From an uncultured Gemmatimonadales bacterium (GTDB lineage Bacteria > Gemmatimonadota > Gemmatimonadetes > Gemmatimonadales > GWC2-71-9): a stretch of 64,000 nucleotides of DNA. Under the pieces are notes generated by a model. It was given only the letters and a program-made list of their open reading frames with translations, made no database searches and had not been told where the DNA came from. The position numbers and the translations under genes are program-made. Position 1 is the first letter of the stretch. Each line of letters starts with the position of its first letter. Of the stretch, positions 54,870 to 64,000 are shown in pieces. The stretch is taken from the NCBI GenBank assembly GCA_963846435.1, contig CAWJVX010000001.1, positions 262,960 to 326,959 on the forward strand, read 5' to 3'.

Positions 54870-55953
54870 ATGACCAGCTCACTTCCCGTCGCCCACACCG
54901 CTCGCAATCTGCTCGACCTGACCCCGCGAAGCCGCCCGGAAAGCCCTGGTGGACTGGGTGGCCGAGCGCGGCTTGCCGTCGTACCGGGCGGGGCAGATGC
55001 TTCGCCGTCTGTGGCAGGCCCCACTGGAGAGGTGGGAACAGGCCACCGATCTTCCGGGCCCACTGCGTGCCGAGCTGGACCACGCCTTTCCCCTGCCCCG
55101 TCTGGTGCCCGACACCGTCCAGCAGTCCGCCGATGGAACCCGCAAATATCTTTGGCGCCTGGAGGACGGGGAGGCCATCGAGTCGGTGCTGATTCCGTCC
55201 GGCAGCCGGCGAACGCTGTGCATCTCGTCGCAGGCCGGGTGTGCCCTCAAGTGCTCGTTCTGCGCCACCGGCCGGATGGGCTTCCGGCGCAACCTGACCC
55301 CGTTCGAGATCGCGGGACAGGTGCGGGAGATCCTGCTGAACAATCCCGACGAGAAGCCGACCAATATCGTCTTTATGGGAATGGGTGAGCCGCTGCTCAA
55401 CTGGCCCGCGGTGGACGCCGCCCTCAGCATCCTCAATCATCCGGATGGCTTCGGCATCGGCGCCCGGCACATCACCGTGTCGACCGTGGGCATTCTGCCG
55501 GGGATGGCGGCGTTCGCCAAGCGGCCGGAGCAATTTCGATTGGCGATCTCCCTGCACGCCCCGACCTCGGCCCAGCGTCTCACCATGATGCCGATCGAGA
55601 AGAAGTACGAGCTCGACTCGGTCCTGAAGGCGGCGGAGGCCTTTCGCAAGCGGGTGACGTTCGAGTACGTGATGATCGGAGGGTTCAATGACAGCGACGC
55701 CGATGCCGCTCAGCTGGGGAAGCTAGCCCGCAGGCTCGGCGCACTGGTGAATATCCTGCCGCTCCATCCGGGCGGCGCGCCCGATCTGACGCCCACCACA
55801 GTGACCCGCATCCGCGCCTTCAGCGACCGACTGCGCAACCAGGGCGTAGAAGCCGTCGTGCGCCGGAGCCGAGGGCTGGACATCAACGCCGCGTGCGGGC
55901 AGCTCAGGGTGGAGGTAGAGAAGAAGCGGGCGGGTAGGCGGGTAAGCGGGTAA
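54870..55953 (+). CDS. rlmN: 23S rRNA/tRNA m2A methyltransferase RlmN; probable frameshift near 54925
   Basis: CISSQAGCALKCSFCATG, FMGMGEP, ISLHA, DINAACGQL. Confidence 0.93.
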
Positions 55954-55996
55954 GCGGGTAAGCGGGAATTGTCACCCTGAGCGAAGCGAGGGGGCC
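55925..55996. repeat. (GCGGGTAA)n plus REP-like left arm
   Basis: gcgggtaggcgggtaagcgggtaagcgggtaagcgggaa, then ttgtcaccctgagcgaagcgagggggcc. Confidence 0.8.
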
Positions 55997-56024
55997 ATAG
56001 CGTGACGTCGCTACAATCCGTTCA

Positions 56025-56498
56025 TTGGTCCCATCGGTCGCTCCGGTCGTGAGCGCTCAGGCGGGTATCCTGCGTCTGGTCCTCTGGCTCGCGCTGCTTG
56101 TTGTTGGTCCACTGTGGGCTCAGGACAGCCTGCAGCCCAAGAGGTCCGTGAAACCGTTCGCCGTTCCCGAGGTCTTGGCGCCGGAACCACCGGCAGCACG
56201 TCCCACACCTCCTCCTGTCGACCCGGCCGCGCTCGCCTCATCCACAATCGCTGCACTGATCGAACTAGAGGATGGTGTCGGCCCCGACGACTGGATGCGC
56301 ACCCACCCTGGCGAAGTCGAGCAGCTTTACAAGCCCGAGCTGGGGCTGATCGATGCCGCGCCATGGTGCCTTCGTTTCTCGCGTCGTTGGGCGATTCCAC
56401 ACGGGCGGATCATCAGCCGCCATGCCTTCTTCTTCCTACCCGAGACATCGGGGATCTTGAAACCTGCCGGTCTATTCGAGATCGTGGTGACCATGTAA
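56025..56498 (+). CDS. Hypothetical exported protein, possibly truncated
   Basis: Signal-like LVLWLALLVVGPLWA-Q, Pro-rich linker; lies between REP arms. Confidence 0.45.
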   Translation: MVPSVAPVVSAQAGILRLVLWLALLVVGPLWAQDSLQPKRSVKPFAVPEVLAPEPPAARPTPPPVDPAALASSTIAALIELEDGVGPDDWMRTHPGEVEQLYKPELGLIDAAPWCLRFSRRWAIPHGRIISRHAFFFLPETSGILKPAGLFEIVVTM

Positions 56499-56506
56499 AC
56501 CCGGCC

Positions 56507-56637
56507 GATTCCTCGCTGCGCTCGGAATGACACAGTGTGCCGGCTCGTCGTGCCCCACCGACCTACTTACCCGCTTACCCGCCTCTCCGCGAGCGACACC
56601 CACTTACCCGCTTACCCACTTACCCGCCTACCCGCTT
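56507..56637. repeat. REP-like right arm plus (TTACCCGC)n
   Basis: gattcctcgctgcgctcggaatgaca, then cttacccgcttacccacttacccgcctacccgc. Confidence 0.8.
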
Positions 56638-59424
56638 CTACCCCGTCGCCCCAAACCCCGCAGCAATACAGTTGATCGATAGCAGCAGCGCCGAGAGCTG
56701 CTCTTCCTGCGTCTTGTCTCCACCCGACTCGCGGAAGCGGCGGAGCAGCTCGATCTGCTGCCGGCTGACCTGATTGATGGTGGGCAGCCGGCGAGCCAGC
56801 CGGCGGCGAAACCGGGGATAGCGCTCGGCCAGCTCCTTGCCGCCACTGATCCGCAGCACCGCTTCAACCGTGCGATGGTACTCCTCTTCGACCAAACCCA
56901 GAATGTTGGCCCGCACTCCGGGATCGGGCACCAGCTCGGCGTACTCCCGCGCTATTCCGAGATCGACGTAGGACAGGGTCTTCTCGACCTCGTCCACGAT
57001 CAGCCGGAACAGCCGCGACTCGGCAAACATCCGGTCCAGCAGGGTCGCTCCTCGCTGACCCCGCACCTGGAGGAACGTGAGGATACCGCTGCCGACCCCG
57101 TACCAGCCGGGGATGAAATGACGATTCTGCGACCAGGCGAACACCCAGGGTATCGCCCGCAGATCGCTGAGGGAGCGGGCGCCAAACCGGCGGGCCGGCC
57201 GGGATCCCATGTTGAGCAGCGAAATCTCCTCCAACGGGCTGGCAGCCTGGTAGTACGCAAACAGATCCGGGTGGTCCACCAGCCCGCGGTAGGAGGCCTG
57301 CGCCGCGCCGGAAAGAGCCTCCATGGCTTCGTCGAACTCCGCAGTGGGCAGCAGCGCCTTCTCCCGCTCCGACTTGAGGGAGTGCTCCACGACGCTGGCG
57401 GCCAGCAGCTCGATCTGATACTGCGCCGTACCGCGGTTGGCATACTTGAATGACACCACCTCGCCCTGCTCGGTGATCCGCATCCTGCCATTGATCGAGC
57501 CAGCCGGCTGAGCGGCGATGGCGCGACCCGTCGGCGCGCCTCCCCGGCTCACCGAGCCGCCGCGGCCATGGAAGAACGCGATCGGCACTCCGCTCTCCCG
57601 GCCCAACCGGGTCAGCTTGATCTGCGCCTTGCTGAGCTCCCAGTTCGAAGTGAGGAAGCCGCCGTCCTTGTTGGAGTCGGAGTAGCCGATCATCACTTCC
57701 TGCACCCCACCCTGCGACCGGACGCTCCGGCGCACCAGCGGCACGGCGAGCAGCTCCTTCATGATGGCGGGTGCCCGCTGCAGATCCTCGATCGTCTCGA
57801 ACAGCGGCACGATCGGAAGGGTCGAGCTCTCGACCCCGGCGGTGTCGCCGAAGAGGCCGGCCGTCTTGGCAAGGAGGTAGGCGCCGAGCACGTCGGCCAC
57901 GCTCCGAGTCATGCTGAGCACGAACGTGCCGAAGGCCTCGCGATCGATCTCCTCCCGCAGCTGCCCGATCAGCTGAAACATCCCGAGGGTTTCGGCCGAG
58001 TCGGGTGGCAGCGCGAGAGGCTGGGCACCAGGAGACAGCGGTCGTGCCAGCTCCGCGGCAATCCATTGCCGCCACTCATCGGAGTCCTGTTCCGGTGGCT
58101 GACCGCCTGTCCGTCCGTCCCCCTGTCCGCCCGCCCGCCAGAGGTCGGCCAGAGCTGCATTGAGCTTGGTGGTGTTCTCCCGGGCGTCGAGCCGTACGGT
58201 GGAGAACCGGAAGGACTCGACCTCACGCCGAACCGGGCGCACCAGAGTGGATGCCAGCGACGTGCTGCCACCAAACTCGAGGGCTTCCTCGATCAGCCGG
58301 AGATCGGCGATCAGGGCCTCGGCCGAGGCATACCCGGCCGCGTCGAACGAGGTTTGGCCCCGCTCGGACGCCGCGATCATGACATCGAGCCGCCGCCCCA
58401 TGCAGGCGAGATACTGGCGAAAGATTTCCCCTGGATTGCGGGCCGCGATCTCGTCCCCTTCTCCGGTCGCCTCCAGCTCGCGAGCGAGTGCTTCGCGGAA
58501 GTTCTCCGGCACCGCCATGGCGCGCTCGGTGATGCTGAGGGCCCGAACCAGCTCGGAGAGCCGCCGCCGATAGCGCCTGAGCCCGGTGAGACGGTTCTCC
58601 AGAATGGTGCTGCGGGTGACGTCGTTGGTGACGAACGGGTTCCCGTCTCGGTCGCCGCCGACCCAGGAGCCGAACTGGAAAAACGGAGGGATCGTGAACT
58701 GCTCGCCGGGGTAGGCGTGCGCCAGCGCCCGCTCGAGTTTATCCAGCAGGTCGGGTATGGCCTCGAACAGGGTTTCGTTGAAGAAGTGCAGCCCCCAGAA
58801 CACTTCCTGGGGAACCGTGGGTTTGGCGAGACGGAGCTCGCCGGTGGTCCACAGGAGCTCGATCTCGTTGCGCAGACCATCAACCAGGGCCTGTCGCTCC
58901 CGGGGCGTCCAGCGGGGGGACTCGAGGTCAACCAGCCGGCGGTAGATCCGGCGGTGCTTCTCCAGGACAGTGACCCGCCGGGCTTCCGTAGGATGGGCAG
59001 TAATGACGGGGCGAATCCGCAGGACGTCCAACAGCTCCCGGATCTCCAGCGGCTTCGAGCCACTGGCGGCGGCGCTGGACACGACCTGGGCAAAGGTGCC
59101 GCGCAGCTGGTCGTAGCCGCGCTCGATCTCGACCTGGCGGCGACGGCGCATGGCCGCGTTCTGCTCCGCGATGCTGAGCAGCTGAAACCAGATCCCCTGT
59201 ACCTGGAGCGTCCGGGCCAGGAGCTCGGGATCGAGACTGGACGGCTGGCGTTCTCCCCGGAGCACCGACTCGACCTCGGGCTGGCGCTCACGCACCAGGT
59301 CGAGGAGGAGCGTGGACAGGAGCTCCACGACTTCCTGGGCGTAAGCCGCGGCACTTGCCGCCGCCGGATCGGCCGACTCCGGCAGCAAGTCGGTGGAGAA
59401 GGGCTCGAGTGCGGTGTGGGTCAC
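56638..59424 (-). CDS. ppc: Phosphoenolpyruvate carboxylase (serine-cycle type)
   Basis: TAHPTE, WVGGDRDGNP, VMIGYSDSNKDGG, FHGRGGSVSRGG, RAIPWVFAWSQ. Confidence 0.96.
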   Translation of the reverse strand: MTHTALEPFSTDLLPESADPAAASAAAYAQEVVELLSTLLLDLVRERQPEVESVLRGERQPSSLDPELLARTLQVQGIWFQLLSIAEQNAAMRRRRQVEIERGYDQLRGTFAQVVSSAAASGSKPLEIRELLDVLRIRPVITAHPTEARRVTVLEKHRRIYRRLVDLESPRWTPRERQALVDGLRNEIELLWTTGELRLAKPTVPQEVFWGLHFFNETLFEAIPDLLDKLERALAHAYPGEQFTIPPFFQFGSWVGGDRDGNPFVTNDVTRSTILENRLTGLRRYRRRLSELVRALSITERAMAVPENFREALARELEATGEGDEIAARNPGEIFRQYLACMGRRLDVMIAASERGQTSFDAAGYASAEALIADLRLIEEALEFGGSTSLASTLVRPVRREVESFRFSTVRLDARENTTKLNAALADLWRAGGQGDGRTGGQPPEQDSDEWRQWIAAELARPLSPGAQPLALPPDSAETLGMFQLIGQLREEIDREAFGTFVLSMTRSVADVLGAYLLAKTAGLFGDTAGVESSTLPIVPLFETIEDLQRAPAIMKELLAVPLVRRSVRSQGGVQEVMIGYSDSNKDGGFLTSNWELSKAQIKLTRLGRESGVPIAFFHGRGGSVSRGGAPTGRAIAAQPAGSINGRMRITEQGEVVSFKYANRGTAQYQIELLAASVVEHSLKSEREKALLPTAEFDEAMEALSGAAQASYRGLVDHPDLFAYYQAASPLEEISLLNMGSRPARRFGARSLSDLRAIPWVFAWSQNRHFIPGWYGVGSGILTFLQVRGQRGATLLDRMFAESRLFRLIVDEVEKTLSYVDLGIAREYAELVPDPGVRANILGLVEEEYHRTVEAVLRISGGKELAERYPRFRRRLARRLPTINQVSRQQIELLRRFRESGGDKTQEEQLSALLLSINCIAAGFGATG

Positions 59425-60395
59425 ACTACGCGGTCGCGGAGGGGTGCGCCGCTAAAGAAGAGGCGCAGGTTCTCGAGGGCTCGCATCCCCATGGCAATGC
59501 GGGTCTCCTGGGTGGCGCTGCCGAGATGGGGGAGCAGCACCACGTTCTCCATGGCGAGGAGCGCCGGGGAGACCTGGGGCTCTTTCTCGTACACGTCGAG
59601 CCCGGCCCCGGCGATGGTCCCACTCGCCAGCGCTTCAACCAGTGCCGCTTCATCCACCACATCCCCCCGCGCGGTGTTGATCAACAGCGCACCGGGCCGC
59701 ATGCGCGCCAGCCGCTCGCGGTTCATCAGGTGACGGGTCTCGGGAGTCGCCGGACAGTGGAGCGAAACGAAATCCGCCTCCTCGAGAACCTGCTCCAGGC
59801 TGGCTCTCGGCTCGGCTCCGAGGGACGCCGCTTCGGCCGGGGTGGGTGGGTATGGGTCGTGGAAGATCACCCGCATGCCGAAGCCGTGGTGGGCGCGCCG
59901 GGCAACCGCCCGGGCGATTCGGCCCATTCCCACCAGGCCCAGCACCTTTCCGCTCACCTGCGTCCCCAGCATATGGGTGGGACGCCAGCCGGTCCAGGCA
60001 CCGGCCCGCACATGGCGCTCCCCTTCCCCGGTGCGGCGGCTGGCCATCAGCAGCAAGGTGATGGCGATGTCCGCGGTGGCTTCGGTCAGAACGTCGGGGG
60101 TGTTCGACACCGCGAGTCCATGGGCCTTGGCGGCCTCGGTATCGATGTTATTGAAGCCGACTCCGAAGTTCGCCAGCAGCCGGGCCCGGTGAGGTTCGAC
60201 GCTGAGCACGTCGGCGGTGAGGCGGTCGGTCACCGTGCAGAGCAGCGCGTCGGCGGTGCGGAGCGCTTCCTGCAGACCGTCGGGACCCAGTGGCCGGTCG
60301 TCACGATTGAGCCGGGCATCGAACTCCCGGCTCACCTCCCTCTCGACCGGCTCGGGAAGGCGGCGGGTCACGACCACGGTTGGGCGCTTGCTCAC
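59421..60395 (-). CDS. D-glycerate dehydrogenase / hydroxypyruvate (glyoxylate) reductase
   Basis: GVGFNNID, NTPDVLTEATAD, G.GRI, NTARG.VVDE, LDVYEKEP, PHLGSAT. Confidence 0.9.
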   Translation of the reverse strand: MSKRPTVVVTRRLPEPVEREVSREFDARLNRDDRPLGPDGLQEALRTADALLCTVTDRLTADVLSVEPHRARLLANFGVGFNNIDTEAAKAHGLAVSNTPDVLTEATADIAITLLLMASRRTGEGERHVRAGAWTGWRPTHMLGTQVSGKVLGLVGMGRIARAVARRAHHGFGMRVIFHDPYPPTPAEAASLGAEPRASLEQVLEEADFVSLHCPATPETRHLMNRERLARMRPGALLINTARGDVVDEAALVEALASGTIAGAGLDVYEKEPQVSPALLAMENVVLLPHLGSATQETRIAMGMRALENLRLFFSGAPLRDRVV

Positions 60396-61306
60396 TTCAC
60401 GGCGACGGTCTTACGCGACGGCTTTTTCGCGAGCGCTCCGGCGACGGTAGAGCCCAGCTCCGCCGGACTGGGGGCGACCATCAGTCCAGCCGAGCGCATG
60501 ATCTCGGCCTTCTCCGCCGCAGTGTCGCCGAAGGCCGAGATGATGGCGCCGGCATGGCCCATCCGGCGCCCCTTGGGAGCGGTCAAGCCCGCGACGTAGC
60601 CGATGACCGGCTTGGTCATGTTGTCCTTGACGAAGAGCGCCGCTTCGGCCTCCTGCGGCCCGCCGATCTCGCCGATCATCATGACGGCTTCGGTCTCCGG
60701 ATCCTCTTCGAACAGCTTGAGCATGTCCACGAAGGAGCTGCCGTTGATGGGATCGCCGCCGATGCCGACACTGGTGGTCTGCCCGATGCCGAGCGCGTTC
60801 ATCTGTGCCGCGGCCTCGTAGCCCAGGGTACCGGACCGGCTGACCACGCCTACGTTCCCCCGGGAATAGATGTGCCCCGGCATGATCCCGAGCATGGCCT
60901 TGCCCGCGCTGATGATGCCCGCACAGTTGGGGCCGATCAACGTGGTTCGCCGCTCCCGGGGAAAACGGAAGAGATAGCGCTTCACCATCATCATATCCTG
61001 GGCGGGAATACCGTCGGTGATGGTGCAAACCAGCCGGATCCCGGCGTTGGCCGCCTCCATGATCGAGTCGGCGCAGAACGCGGCCGGTACGAAGACGATG
61101 CTGGCCTCGGCCCCGACCTCACGCACGGCTTCCTTCACCGTGTTGAAGACCGGCCGGTCGAGATGGCGGCTCCCACCCTTCCCCGGCGTCACCCCACCGA
61201 CGACGTTGGTGCCGTACTTCATCATCTCCCCGGCATGGAACGTCGCCTTCTCACCGGTGAAGCCCTGGACGATGACCCGGGTTCGTTCGTCGATCAGGAT
61301 ACTCAT
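60392..61306 (-). CDS. mtkB: Malate--CoA ligase (malate thiokinase) alpha subunit
   Basis: SucD-like ([22 protein letters not shown]) with [11 protein letters not shown]; operonic with mtkA and mcl. Confidence 0.85.
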
Positions 61307-62505
61307 GGAGCACCGTTCCCGTGGGCGGTGGACTGGGCGCGCGCACCTTTCAGTGCGGCAACGACGCGATCGGCGGCTTCAGACAGCGTTTCGGCGGTAA
61401 TGATCGGCAATCCGCTCTCCCGTACGATGCGCCGCCCTTCTTCCACGTTGGTTCCGGCCAGGCGGACGACCAGGGGTACCCGCATCTGGATGTCGCGCGC
61501 GGCCTGCACCACACCCTGGGCCACCCAGTCGCAGCGGTTGATCCCGGCAAAGATGTTCACCAGGATCGCGCCGACCTTCGCATCGGAGAGCACCAGGCGG
61601 AAGGCGGCCGCGACCCGCTCCGGTGACGCACCGCCACCTACATCGAGGAAATTGGCCGGTTGGCCTCCGGCGTGTTTGATCATGTCCATGGTGGCCATCG
61701 CGAGCCCGGCCCCGTTGATGATGCAGCCGATGTCGCCGTCCAGCCCGACATAATTGAGCCCGTGCTCCGCCGCCTGTGCCTCCCGCGGATCCTCCTCGGC
61801 GTAGTCGCGCAGCTCACTGACATTGGGGCGGCGGAACATGGCGTTGTCATCGAAGGTCATCTTGCAGTCGAGCGCCAGGACCTGCCCGTCCTTGGCGACC
61901 ACCAGCGGATTGATCTCGACCATGGTCGCGTCCAGGTCGCGGAAGGCGCGATAGGCGCCGAGCAGGGTGGTCACCGCGCGGCTCACCTGGGCCGGGGCGA
62001 GTCCCAGACCGTAGGCGATCTCCCGGGCCTGGAACGCACTCATGCCGATGGCCGGCTCCACCGATTCCCGGAGAATGGAGTCGGGCGCGGTCTTGGCGAT
62101 CTCTTCGATTTCCATCCCGCCCTGCGGGTGGGCCACGATCATGATCCGCTCGGTCTTCCGGTCCAGCACCAGACCCAGGTAGAGCTCCCGCTCGATCGGA
62201 ACGGCCGCCTCGACATAGAGCCGGTGGACCACCCGTCCCTCCGGACCGGTCTGATGCGTTACCAGGCGCTTGCCCAGCAGAGTCTTGGCCGCCTGGCGGA
62301 CCTCATCCTCATTGGAGCACAGCTTGATGCCGCCGGCCTTGCCGCGGGCGCCGGAGTGGATCTGCGCCTTCACCGCCCAGCGCGCCCCGCCGATTTCGGA
62401 GGCCCGGTAGACGGCCTGCTCCGGGCTGTAGGCCACGCCGCCGCGGGGAATGGCGACGCCGAATCCGGCGAGGAGCTCCTTGGCCTGATATTCGTGGATG
62501 TCCAT
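61303..62505 (-). CDS. mtkA: Malate--CoA ligase (malate thiokinase) beta subunit
   Basis: [15 protein letters not shown]...AYSPEQAVY...[21 protein letters not shown]; [13 protein letters not shown]. Confidence 0.88.
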
Positions 62506-62540
62506 AGTCGATCCGGAAGCGGAGGTCAGAGTTGGAAATA

Positions 62541-62643
62541 GTCGCCAGTCGTCAGTCGCCGGTCATCAGTCGCCAGCCACCAGGCGCGAGGTTACGTCAG
62601 GAAACTGCCGCCGGCGACTTGCGACTTGCGACCGGCGACTTGC
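62541..62643. repeat. Inverted heptamer repeats (AGTCGCC)/(GCGACTT), overlapping the mcl 3' end
   Basis: gtcgccagtcgtcagtcgccggtcatcagtcgcc / ggcgacttgcgacttgcgaccggcgacttgc. Confidence 0.65.
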
Positions 62644-63574
62644 TCCCAATTGCTTCCGCCGTATCCACCACATTCTGCGCCATCCGCGCGGACGCCGCGT
62701 CGATCATGCGGCCGTCCAGCTGGGCGGCGCCGCGGCCCTCTCGAGCCGCCTGGTCCAGCGCCTCCAGGATGCGCCTGGCCCGCTCGACTTCCTTGGGCGG
62801 GGGCGTGAACACCTCATTGGCGAGCGCGATCTGCGAGGGATGAATCGCCCACTTCCCCTCGATGCCGAGGGCCGCACCCCGGCGGGCGGCGGCATTGTAC
62901 CCCTCCGGGTCCTTGAAATCACCGAACGGCCCGTCGATGGCACGGAGACCATACGCCCGGCAGGCCACGACCATCCGCGAGAGCGCCGCGTGCCACTGGT
63001 CTCCCGGGTAGTCGGGATTGAGCCCGCCGATGTTGACGGTGCGGGCCCGGCAGCTCGCGGCATAATCGGCCACGCCGAAGTGCATGGCCTCGAGCCGGCG
63101 GCTCGACTGCGCGATCGCCTCGACATTGGCCATGCCAAGGGCCGTCTCGATCAGCACGTCGATACCGATGCGGTGCGGAATGCCTTTGGCTTCCTCGATC
63201 TGGGTGAGCAGGGCGTCCACCAGATACACGTCGGCGGGAACACCTACCTTGGGGATGAGCACGCTGTCCAACCGGTGCCCCGCCTGCTCGACCACGTCCA
63301 CCACATCGCGATACATGTAGTGGGTGTCGATGCCATTGATCCGGACCGAGATCGTCTTGCCCCGCTCGCGCCAGTCATCCTGGAGCAGGCTGGCGATCAC
63401 GTTGAGCCGGGCCTGCTCCTTGTCGCCGGGAGCCACCGCGTCCTCGAGATCGAGGAAGATGTAGTCCGCTTCCCCCTCGAGGGCCTTCCGAAACATGGCC
63501 GGTTGGGAACCAGGGACGGCCAGCTCGCTGCGCTGCAGCCGCGCACGGGCCGGCTCATAGCGGGTATGGCTCAT
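62597..63574 (-). CDS. mcl: L-malyl-CoA/beta-methylmalyl-CoA lyase
   Basis: RLQRSELAVPGS, FLDLEDAVAP.DKEQAR, VRINGIDTHYMYRD, IDGPFGDF, GKWAIHPSQI. Confidence 0.9.
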   Translation of the reverse strand: MSHTRYEPARARLQRSELAVPGSQPAMFRKALEGEADYIFLDLEDAVAPGDKEQARLNVIASLLQDDWRERGKTISVRINGIDTHYMYRDVVDVVEQAGHRLDSVLIPKVGVPADVYLVDALLTQIEEAKGIPHRIGIDVLIETALGMANVEAIAQSSRRLEAMHFGVADYAASCRARTVNIGGLNPDYPGDQWHAALSRMVVACRAYGLRAIDGPFGDFKDPEGYNAAARRGAALGIEGKWAIHPSQIALANEVFTPPPKEVERARRILEALDQAAREGRGAAQLDGRMIDAASARMAQNVVDTAEAIGSKSPVASRKSPAAVS

Positions 63575-64000
63575 CGGCCCGCGCCGGCCGTGGCCTTGGC
63601 CTTGGAGGACGCCGGTGCCGGTTGGGCGTCCGGTGCCCGCGCCGGGAGCTCACGCTTCGATAGCGGGGCGGCCGTGCTGCGCCAGTATTCTTCAGCGGCT
63701 GCGACACCACTGCCCGGGGTGACCTTGATGCCGACATCCCGCATGGCCATTTCGGCCCCTGCGATGGCACCCATCAGCATCAGCTCGTTCAGGTCGCCCA
63801 GATGTCCGATGCGGAACAGCTTCCCGGCCATGCGGGCCAGCCCTGCGCCCAGCGCGAGGTTATAGCGCCGATACGCCACGTCGATCACCTCGGCTCCATT
63901 GAATCCGGCGGGAACCATGATGGCGCTTACGGTGTCGGAGTGCCACTTCGGCGCCCGGGCACACAGCTCCAGGCCCCAGGCCTTCACCGCCTGCCGGGTG
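63571..64000 (-). CDS. sgaA: Serine--glyoxylate aminotransferase, 3' part (runs off the right edge)
   Basis: AWGL.LCA....W.SDTVSAI, YNLALGAGL, FRIGHLGDLNELML.GAIAGAEM, PGSGVAAA. Confidence 0.88.
   Translation of the reverse strand, partial: TRQAVKAWGLELCARAPKWHSDTVSAIMVPAGFNGAEVIDVAYRRYNLALGAGLARMAGKLFRIGHLGDLNELMLMGAIAGAEMAMRDVGIKVTPGSGVAAAEEYWRSTAAPLSKRELPARAPDAQPAPASSKAKATAGAGR

Follow-up and report, generated by a model that had tools for sequence, protein, structure and literature searches.

Organisation of the operon and its contig

The window analysed here is a stretch of 64,000 nucleotides from an uncultured Gemmatimonadales bacterium (C1:262960-326959, where C1 denotes the host contig CAWJVX010000001.1 and the other contigs of the assembly are numbered likewise), and the feature of interest is a cluster of serine-cycle genes at its far end. 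A total of six open reading frames (ORFs), sga-mcl-mtkA-mtkB-hpr-ppc, were found to be co-oriented on the minus strand, which is the arrangement given in a preliminary description of this DNA. Positions below are in window numbering unless a contig is named. The sga gene, for a predicted serine--glyoxylate aminotransferase, crosses the window end; its 3' part occupies 63571-64000 and it continues to window-equivalent position 64833, the complete ORF (C1:326530-327792) being 420 aa long. It is followed by mcl (malyl-CoA lyase, 325 aa, 62597-63574), mtkA (beta subunit of malate--CoA ligase, or malate thiokinase, 400 aa, 61303-62505), mtkB (alpha subunit of the same enzyme, 304 aa, 60392-61306), hpr (a GyaR-type D-2-hydroxyacid dehydrogenase, presumed to be hydroxypyruvate reductase, 324 aa, 59421-60395) and ppc (phosphoenolpyruvate (PEP) carboxylase, 928 aa, 56638-59424), which is the last gene of the operon.

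Four of the gene junctions had been described as stop/start overlaps, and each was observed to be a true overlap of 4 nt: ATGA at sga/mcl and at mtkA/mtkB, and GTGA at mtkB/hpr and at hpr/ppc. Between mcl and mtkA lies a spacer of 91 nt (62506-62596, minus strand) which holds two copies of a short direct repeat, GGCGACTGAYGACY, with no other copy in the genome. Model alignments span all six ORFs end to end and the operon itself is therefore without a frameshift. Just past the window end, a gene for glycerate 2-kinase (gck, 447 aa, window-equivalent 65086-66429, C1:328045-329388, plus strand) is divergent to sga and starts 252 nt upstream of it. The earlier statement that glycerate kinase lies outside the window is correct for the window, but the gene directly adjoins the operon. 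Its product has DUF4147 and MOFRL domains, with weak matches to archaeal glycerate 2-kinase equivalogs (171 bits), and gck was found divergent and adjacent to sga in six of nine Gemmatimonadota loci.

The GC content is even along the window. In addition, the flank order MCP-panB-yqeK-like-gck, then the operon, then rlmN-orf-aspS, is repeated in three Gemmatimonadales contigs of metagenome-assembled genomes (MAGs) from independent assemblies (L019, L020 and L021). A chimeric contig is ruled out by the even GC and this shared synteny. The nearest MtkA loci are Gemmatimonadales or Gemmatimonadaceae MAGs by title, with 75-96% MtkA identity, which agrees with the Gemmatimonadota origin assumed in the preliminary description.

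Identities of the encoded enzymes

MtkA exceeds the cut-off of 604 on NF010647, the NCBIfam equivalog model for the malate--CoA ligase beta subunit, with about 710.9 bits, and the genome's own SucC scores 381.7 bits with the same model. A separate sucCD pair was found at C1:88564-90543, with identities of 42% (beta subunit, to MtkA) and 52% (alpha subunit, to MtkB). A tree was built from 78 MtkA rows (the window's own and 77 of 80 fetched loci, three loci with an internal stop having been dropped) together with the SucC of the genome, and a very long branch was observed to part SucC from the MtkA clade. MtkB scores 437.8 and 406.9 bits with SucD-type models and is 66-80% identical to the MtkB found beside MtkA in 75 other loci. 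By these comparisons MtkAB is a predicted malate--CoA ligase and not the SucCD of the cell, a candidate excluded by the separate sucCD, the scores on the Mtk model and the long tree branch. The phylogeny that had been proposed as a check of this point thus sets MtkA apart from true SucC.

The class-V aminotransferase Sga has serine--glyoxylate aminotransferase 6pk1 as its best solved relative (498.9 bits) and is 57-73% identical to the Sga of proteobacterial serine-cycle clusters. It also reaches 629.3 bits with the BhcA equivalog, slightly short of the cut-off of 650, and this score favours a reading in which the aminotransferase is BhcA and the cluster takes part in glyoxylate assimilation of the beta-hydroxyaspartate type. 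However, the Sga proteins of methylotroph operons score 550.8-615.5 bits with the same model, so that a value near the cut-off is normal for Sga. Furthermore, no BhcB was found at the cut-off of 550 in the genome or in five relatives from the genus (best 229.7-240.8 bits, with 229.7 in the genome), and the gene is surrounded by hpr, gck, mtkAB and mcl rather than by bhcBCD. We regard BhcA as a highly improbable identity for this protein. Its matches are those of a serine--glyoxylate aminotransferase, with serine as the predicted amino donor.

Mcl belongs to the HpcH/CitE family (PF03328 and PF15617) and its best solved relatives are the malyl-CoA/beta-methylmalyl-CoA lyase 5ugr (416.5 bits) and the malyl-CoA lyase 4l9y (316.9 bits). 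Ppc matches PF00311 with 801.4 bits and NF000584 with 763.3 bits, the latter below the cut-off of 815, and is 54-93% identical to the ppc product at the same position in related operons.

The preliminary description had called the reductase GyaR-like rather than a classic HprA, and this is borne out. Besides PF02826 and PF00389, the best match of Hpr is the glyoxylate reductase model NF009714, with 309.6 bits against a cut-off of 455, and it shares only 31% identity with the classic HprA of a Methylorubrum locus. Its best solved relatives, at 246-263 bits, are the glyoxylate reductases 5aov, 6bii and 2dbq; the D-glycerate dehydrogenase 1gdh follows with 224.7 bits. The enzyme 1gdh comes from Hyphomicrobium methylovorum, a methylotroph with the serine pathway, and is its hydroxypyruvate reductase. 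The gene occupies the hpr position of operons with the same order, and Hpr is presumed to act as a hydroxypyruvate reductase.

One-carbon oxidation and folate genes elsewhere in the genome

Two dehydrogenases of the pyrroloquinoline quinone (PQQ) methanol/ethanol family were found over the cut-off of 480 on TIGR03075, with about 686.8 and 643.2 bits. The first is encoded by an xoxF-like gene (C9:153821-155494) and carries a WDYDG motif, that is, a 'DYD' with an extra Asp two residues past the catalytic Asp, which we take to be the signature of lanthanide-type enzymes. It is followed by a MoxJ-like (xoxJ-like) gene whose product passes TIGR03871 and by a c-type cytochrome gene, and a gene for a PQQ-associated beta-propeller protein lies nearby on the same contig. 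These features are those of a lanthanide-type (XoxF) methanol dehydrogenase, which is the predicted identity. The second dehydrogenase (C9:12765-14672, 643 bits) shares 53% identity with the first and carries WDFDA instead of WDYDG. A third PQQ dehydrogenase, on C3, is split in two.

The xoxF-like gene belongs to a methylotrophy island at C9:150258-181637, which comprises the beta-propeller, cytochrome c, xoxJ-like and xoxF-like genes together with genes for the tetrahydromethanopterin (H4MPT) pathway. The H4MPT biosynthesis genes (beta-RFAP synthase, pabAB-like and DHPS-like) adjoin the xoxF-like gene, and the H4MPT oxidation genes mch, fhcD, fhcA, fhcB, an mtdA/B-like gene for a Mpt_N dehydrogenase and fae were found within 30 kb. 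The genome also carries pqqC, fhs, folD (231 bits) and glyA (557 bits). A search beyond the window for genes of one-carbon oxidation and of tetrahydrofolate (H4F) metabolism had been recommended, and xoxF, pqqC, fhs, folD, the mtdA/B-like gene, glyA, fae, mch and fhcDAB were all located. Malate synthase A is also present. No large subunit of RuBisCO was found in the genome, which rules out a role based on the Calvin-Benson-Bassham cycle or on photorespiration. A search of 31 genomes from the genus for the particulate methane monooxygenase gene pmoA (PF02461) gave no match, but none was obtained in the control genomes either, so that the search is one without a positive control.

Distribution and co-occurrence

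The distribution of the operon was followed in 151 genomes of the same family, representing 78 genera. Matches at the level of MtkA were observed in 37 genomes (19 genera) and mch in 40 genomes (20 genera). Both genes are present in 35 genomes and both are absent from 109; 2 genomes have MtkA without mch and 5 have mch without MtkA. Four of the five genomes with only mch belong to genera in which other sampled members have MtkA, and three of the five are at most 80% complete. A PQQ dehydrogenase over the cut-off was found in 81 genomes, that is, as read from the table, in 35 of the 37 genomes with MtkA and in 46 without it. The operon is tied to the H4MPT module for handling formaldehyde and not to XoxF alone, because MtkA and mch overlap so closely while the PQQ dehydrogenases are much commoner. 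As markers of likely methanol assimilators, the mtk operon and the H4MPT genes would therefore be far better than XoxF (37 against 81 of the 151 genomes).

Within the genus, MtkA was found over the cut-off in 21 of 24 other genomes, and the three without it are 58-76% complete. In the phylum as a whole it was observed in 76 of 401 genomes. With the host genome set aside, its own family accounts for 66 of 166 genomes and another family of the order for 8 of 93; a third family gave 1 match below the cut-off among 13 genomes and nine other families gave none among 128. Some of the tallies include unpublished genomes: G003, which has MtkA, is among the genus counts; G180 is among the family genomes with MtkA, mch, canonical isocitrate lyase and a PQQ dehydrogenase; G114 is among those with canonical isocitrate lyase; and G221, which has MtkA, is in the phylum count. 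Their removal shifts each count by one with no change in the conclusions.

Proposed regeneration of glyoxylate

A serine cycle requires acetyl-CoA to be returned to glyoxylate, and the preliminary description had advised a search for icl or ccr/ecm. Neither ccr nor a canonical isocitrate lyase (ICL) was found, and the search did recover a divergent ICL-like protein. For ccr, the best match to TIGR01751 in the genome has 116 bits against a cut-off of 378.6, and none of the 151 family genomes has a match at E <= 1e-80. The ethylmalonyl-CoA pathway was ruled out as a candidate by this lack of ccr in the genome and the family, and on the gene content such a route is unlikely here. Cleavage of isocitrate is the most likely path from acetyl-CoA to glyoxylate because ccr was not found.

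The canonical ICL is missing from the genome and from the sampled genus. The divergent ICL-like protein is encoded at C1:517604-518743 (379 aa). It scores higher on isocitrate lyases than on methylisocitrate lyases, can be aligned from end to end with solved isocitrate lyases and retains the stretches SGW, EAGFGGP, CGH, ARTD and NxSPS, which we take to be catalytic or substrate-binding motifs. Hundreds of close metagenomic relatives were found, named automatically as isocitrate lyase or as ICL/PEP-mutase family protein.

In the family, the ICL-like protein occurs in 28 of the 151 genomes and the canonical ICL in 66, with no genome holding both. Among the 37 genomes with MtkA, 21 have the ICL-like protein, 11 the canonical ICL and none both. 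The ICL-like protein is also enriched with the mtk operon, as only 7 of the 114 genomes without the operon carry it. Since the two forms never co-occur in the 151 genomes, the simplest reading is that they are functional alternatives, and the ICL-like protein may then close the cycle as a putative isocitrate lyase. This question of glyoxylate regeneration is the most original thread of the finding.

Proposed role of the operon

We consider the cluster likely to form the assimilatory core of a serine cycle which works on methanol-derived one-carbon units in this soil-type Gemmatimonadales bacterium. The sequence shows the identities of the genes, their clustering and their co-occurrence with genes of one-carbon metabolism, whereas the direction of flux, the expression of the pathway, its substrates and the part played by the ICL-like protein are inferred. 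One-carbon assimilation had been deduced in the preliminary description and it is supported, as MtkAB is distinct from the true SucCD, genes for one-carbon oxidation and H4F metabolism are present and the contig is not a chimera.

In the proposed pathway, a periplasmic PQQ methanol dehydrogenase of the lanthanide type would oxidise methanol to formaldehyde, which would be converted to formate on H4MPT by Fae, the MtdA/B-like enzyme, Mch and FhcABCD. Formate would be brought to methylene-H4F by Fhs and FolD, and GlyA would combine methylene-H4F with glycine to give serine. Sga is predicted to convert serine and glyoxylate to hydroxypyruvate and glycine, after which the GyaR-type Hpr would form glycerate and Gck 2-phosphoglycerate, from which a presumed enolase would give PEP. 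Ppc would carboxylate PEP to oxaloacetate, which a presumed malate dehydrogenase would reduce to malate; MtkAB would then activate malate to malyl-CoA and Mcl would split it into glyoxylate and acetyl-CoA. The acetyl-CoA would be returned to glyoxylate through isocitrate cleavage by the ICL-like protein of C1:517604-518743. A serine cycle closed via isocitrate lyase is termed 'icl+'.

Several observations weigh against this reading. A search for sequencing runs that contain this stretch found no RNA run, and no run matched more than 0.09 of the sampled words. Hpr may prefer either hydroxypyruvate or glyoxylate. The ICL-like protein scores 170.6 bits on the ICL equivalog against a cut-off of 562 and has RTCGH where solved ICLs have KKCGH, and five of the 37 genomes with MtkA carry neither ICL form. 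Furthermore, the compared genomes are kin, and the co-occurrence counts are therefore descriptive and overstate independence. Frameshifts in genes on which the pathway depends are a further point and are taken up in the next section.

In addition, clusters of this kind were found in genera from which methylotrophy is not known, among them at loci of Ruegeria, Paraburkholderia and Mesorhizobium. This occurrence would fit a cluster that serves C2 or glyoxylate metabolism, that is, the turnover of glycolate, glyoxylate, glycine and serine, instead of one-carbon assimilation. Sga, Hpr and Gck would then carry the carbon of glyoxylate and serine to 2-phosphoglycerate, and Mtk and Mcl would interconvert malate with glyoxylate and acetyl-CoA. 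The glyoxylate-reductase type of Hpr and the presence of malate synthase A agree with such a role, and the PQQ dehydrogenases, being more widespread than the operon, show that XoxF alone does not imply assimilation. However, the nearly one-to-one tracking of the H4MPT pathway by MtkA is not predicted by a C2 role, there is no RuBisCO to make phosphoglycolate, and the placement of ppc within the operon fits a carboxylating serine cycle. We therefore judge the C2 role to be unlikely, and assimilation of methanol-derived carbon by the serine cycle to be the better account of the locus.

Frame-broken genes

A number of genes in this assembly were observed to be broken, and these count among the points against methanol assimilation by the organism. 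The xoxF gene has one frameshift near its 5' end (C9:~155.4 kb), which leaves the signal peptide in another frame, and fhs, on contig C10 (21.4-23.1 kb), is in six frame-shifted pieces. Malate synthase (aceB, C9:~337.5 kb) and sucD (C1:~89.1 kb) are split, and pqqC (C3, 811-812 kb) has an internal TGA. The third PQQ dehydrogenase is broken at 72.9-74.4 kb of C3. If the breaks were real, the one-carbon route would be dead.

The locus could then be a decaying remnant, in which the operon is still intact, xoxF and fhs are true pseudogenes and the pathway no longer runs on methanol; the frameshifts of these two genes, the internal stop of pqqC and the split third dehydrogenase are what such decay would leave. 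The pattern is nevertheless unlike decay free of selection. The core gene sucD is broken as well, and the breaks concentrate on C10, whose coding fraction by crude gene calls is 0.587, against 0.79-0.85 on the large contigs. Moreover, fhs is single, intact and full-length in 10 of the 12 genomes of the genus that are at least 90% complete; of the remaining two, one is another assembly of three contigs in which the gene is frame-split and in the other it is cut at contig ends. Because a core gene is also hit, the breaks pile up on C10 and fhs is intact in relatives, the breaks are probably consensus indel errors of a few-contig assembly. Decay of the pathway is accordingly a quite improbable explanation.

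Comparison with known operons

The operon was compared with 80 loci that were fetched with MtkA, in which two gene orders dominate. All nine loci with Gemmatimonadota in their title show the order of the window, with a GyaR-type hpr, over the length that their contigs cover. Loci of another phylum have this order too, namely those of Aminobacter aganoensis, Mesorhizobium sp. Root157, Hyphomicrobium MAGs and uncultured Gammaproteobacteria, which share the order sga-mcl-mtkA-mtkB-hpr, in part with ppc; their GyaR-type Hpr is 55-66% and their Mcl 70-76% identical to those of the window. The position of gck differs: in the Aminobacter locus the gene lies downstream of hpr, and in the window's locus it is divergent and upstream of the operon. 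The second of the two orders (sga-hprA ... mtkA-mtkB-ppc-mcl) was observed in Methylobacterium/Methylorubrum, Methylocystis, Methyloversatilis, Paraburkholderia and others, and these operons form a separate supported MtkA clade (SH-aLRT 99).

The Methylobacterium/Methylorubrum, Methyloversatilis and Methylocystis operons encode the same enzymes (MtkA 69-76%, MtkB 72-80%, Sga 59-72% and Mcl 62-68% identical), but in a different order, and their HprA belongs to another 2-hydroxyacid dehydrogenase subfamily with only 29-36% identity. Hpr of the window falls in the same subfamily as 1gdh and the archaeal glyoxylate reductases 5aov, 6bii and 2dbq (224.7-262.6 bits), at moderate identity. Methylorubrum extorquens regenerates glyoxylate by the ethylmalonyl-CoA pathway, for which ccr is the key gene, and it differs in this from the present genome and the 151 family genomes, in which ccr was not found.

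A concatenated tree of Sga, Mcl, MtkA and MtkB (33 rows and 1408 columns, from a quick search) was made with 32 of the 80 loci, those in which all four genes are free of stops and cover at least 85% of the query. Its six Gemmatimonadota rows group together as a clade of their own (SH-aLRT 99), which is not nested in any proteobacterial group. Under the chosen root, the sister of this clade is formed by the proteobacterial operons that share its gene order. The root was placed by choice on the Methylobacterium-type operons and the backbone of the MtkA tree is unresolved, so that neither tree decides the direction of transfer. A wider picture can be offered tentatively, as a possibility to which we give slightly less than even weight. 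Gemmatimonadales would run an icl+ cycle without the ethylmalonyl-CoA pathway, and in more than half of the operon-bearing genomes this would be closed by an uncharacterised, deeply divergent ICL clade that displaced canonical AceA, with proteins of about 379 aa that have RTCGH instead of KKCGH and reach roughly 130 bits against solved ICLs; the operon would be old, specific to Gemmatimonadota and sister to the proteobacterial type, and not a recent proteobacterial import.

Plants release methanol as one of their major volatiles, and the Gemmatimonadota of soil are abundant but almost uncultured. The preliminary description held one-carbon assimilation to be poorly characterised in this lineage, and this needs correction: the main text of a study of soil MAGs describes methylotrophy in Gemmatimonadetes by a malate-route serine pathway with ppc, with proteomic support (Butterfield et al. 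2016, PMC5103831). An XoxF-type dehydrogenase, an H4MPT route and an H4F route to serine are also described there, and these MAGs, from the same phylum, have the same parts list and, as here, xoxF beside the H4MPT biosynthesis genes, as far as that text goes. Follow-up work on Gemmatimonadetes methylotrophy is found in PMC10875860 and PMC11264602, and RNA stable-isotope probing with 13C-methanol labelled Gemmatimonadetes at class level (PMC9258066). Since methanol use by Gemmatimonadetes has been reported since 2016, the present locus is a good example rather than a discovery.

Nevertheless, accounts of the 2016 type give in their main text no operon order, GyaR-type reductase, lack of ccr or two forms of ICL. 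Our literature search retrieved nothing on Gemmatimonadota with malate thiokinase, or on their methylotrophy with malyl-CoA, and for a gemmatimonad serine pathway together with isocitrate lyase it retrieved only PMC5103831 and papers on Binatota. In the literature searched, supplements aside, there thus seems to be no description of how the operon is built, of the lack of ccr or of the alternation of ICL forms. The locus offers a clean, contiguous and complete genetic template for the assimilatory route of methanol in Gemmatimonadota. For a proposed Gemmatimonadota methanotroph, which is disputed, the serine cycle was judged incomplete in a 2026 preprint (bioRxiv 10.64898/2026.02.02.703227), and the existence of complete serine-cycle operons in the phylum bears on that case.

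Repeats bordering the operon

Scans for promoters and terminators in the divergent region between sga and gck and downstream of ppc found nothing, and no canonical intrinsic terminator was present in either of these two regions. A G-rich tandem repeat, (GGGTARGC)x3, was observed at 56609-56633 on the minus strand, 5 nt past the stop codon of ppc, and a (GGGTARGC)n repeat lies on the plus strand at 55932-55956, at the end of the convergent gene rlmN. The region between rlmN and ppc (55954-56637, 684 nt) has these G-rich repeats at both bounds and holds no ORF that passes a gene filter based on GC3. A regular-expression scan of the genome for at least three units located 37 sites, of which 27 directly follow a gene of the same strand. 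In most of these cases the distance to the stop codon is no more than about 30 nt, and convergent pairs are frequent. We noticed that the 8-nt period places TAA or TAG in all three frames and that the G3N5 spacing resembles that of a G-quadruplex. By its placement, (GGGTARGC)n may be a candidate 3'-end or terminator-like element which marks the end of the operon.

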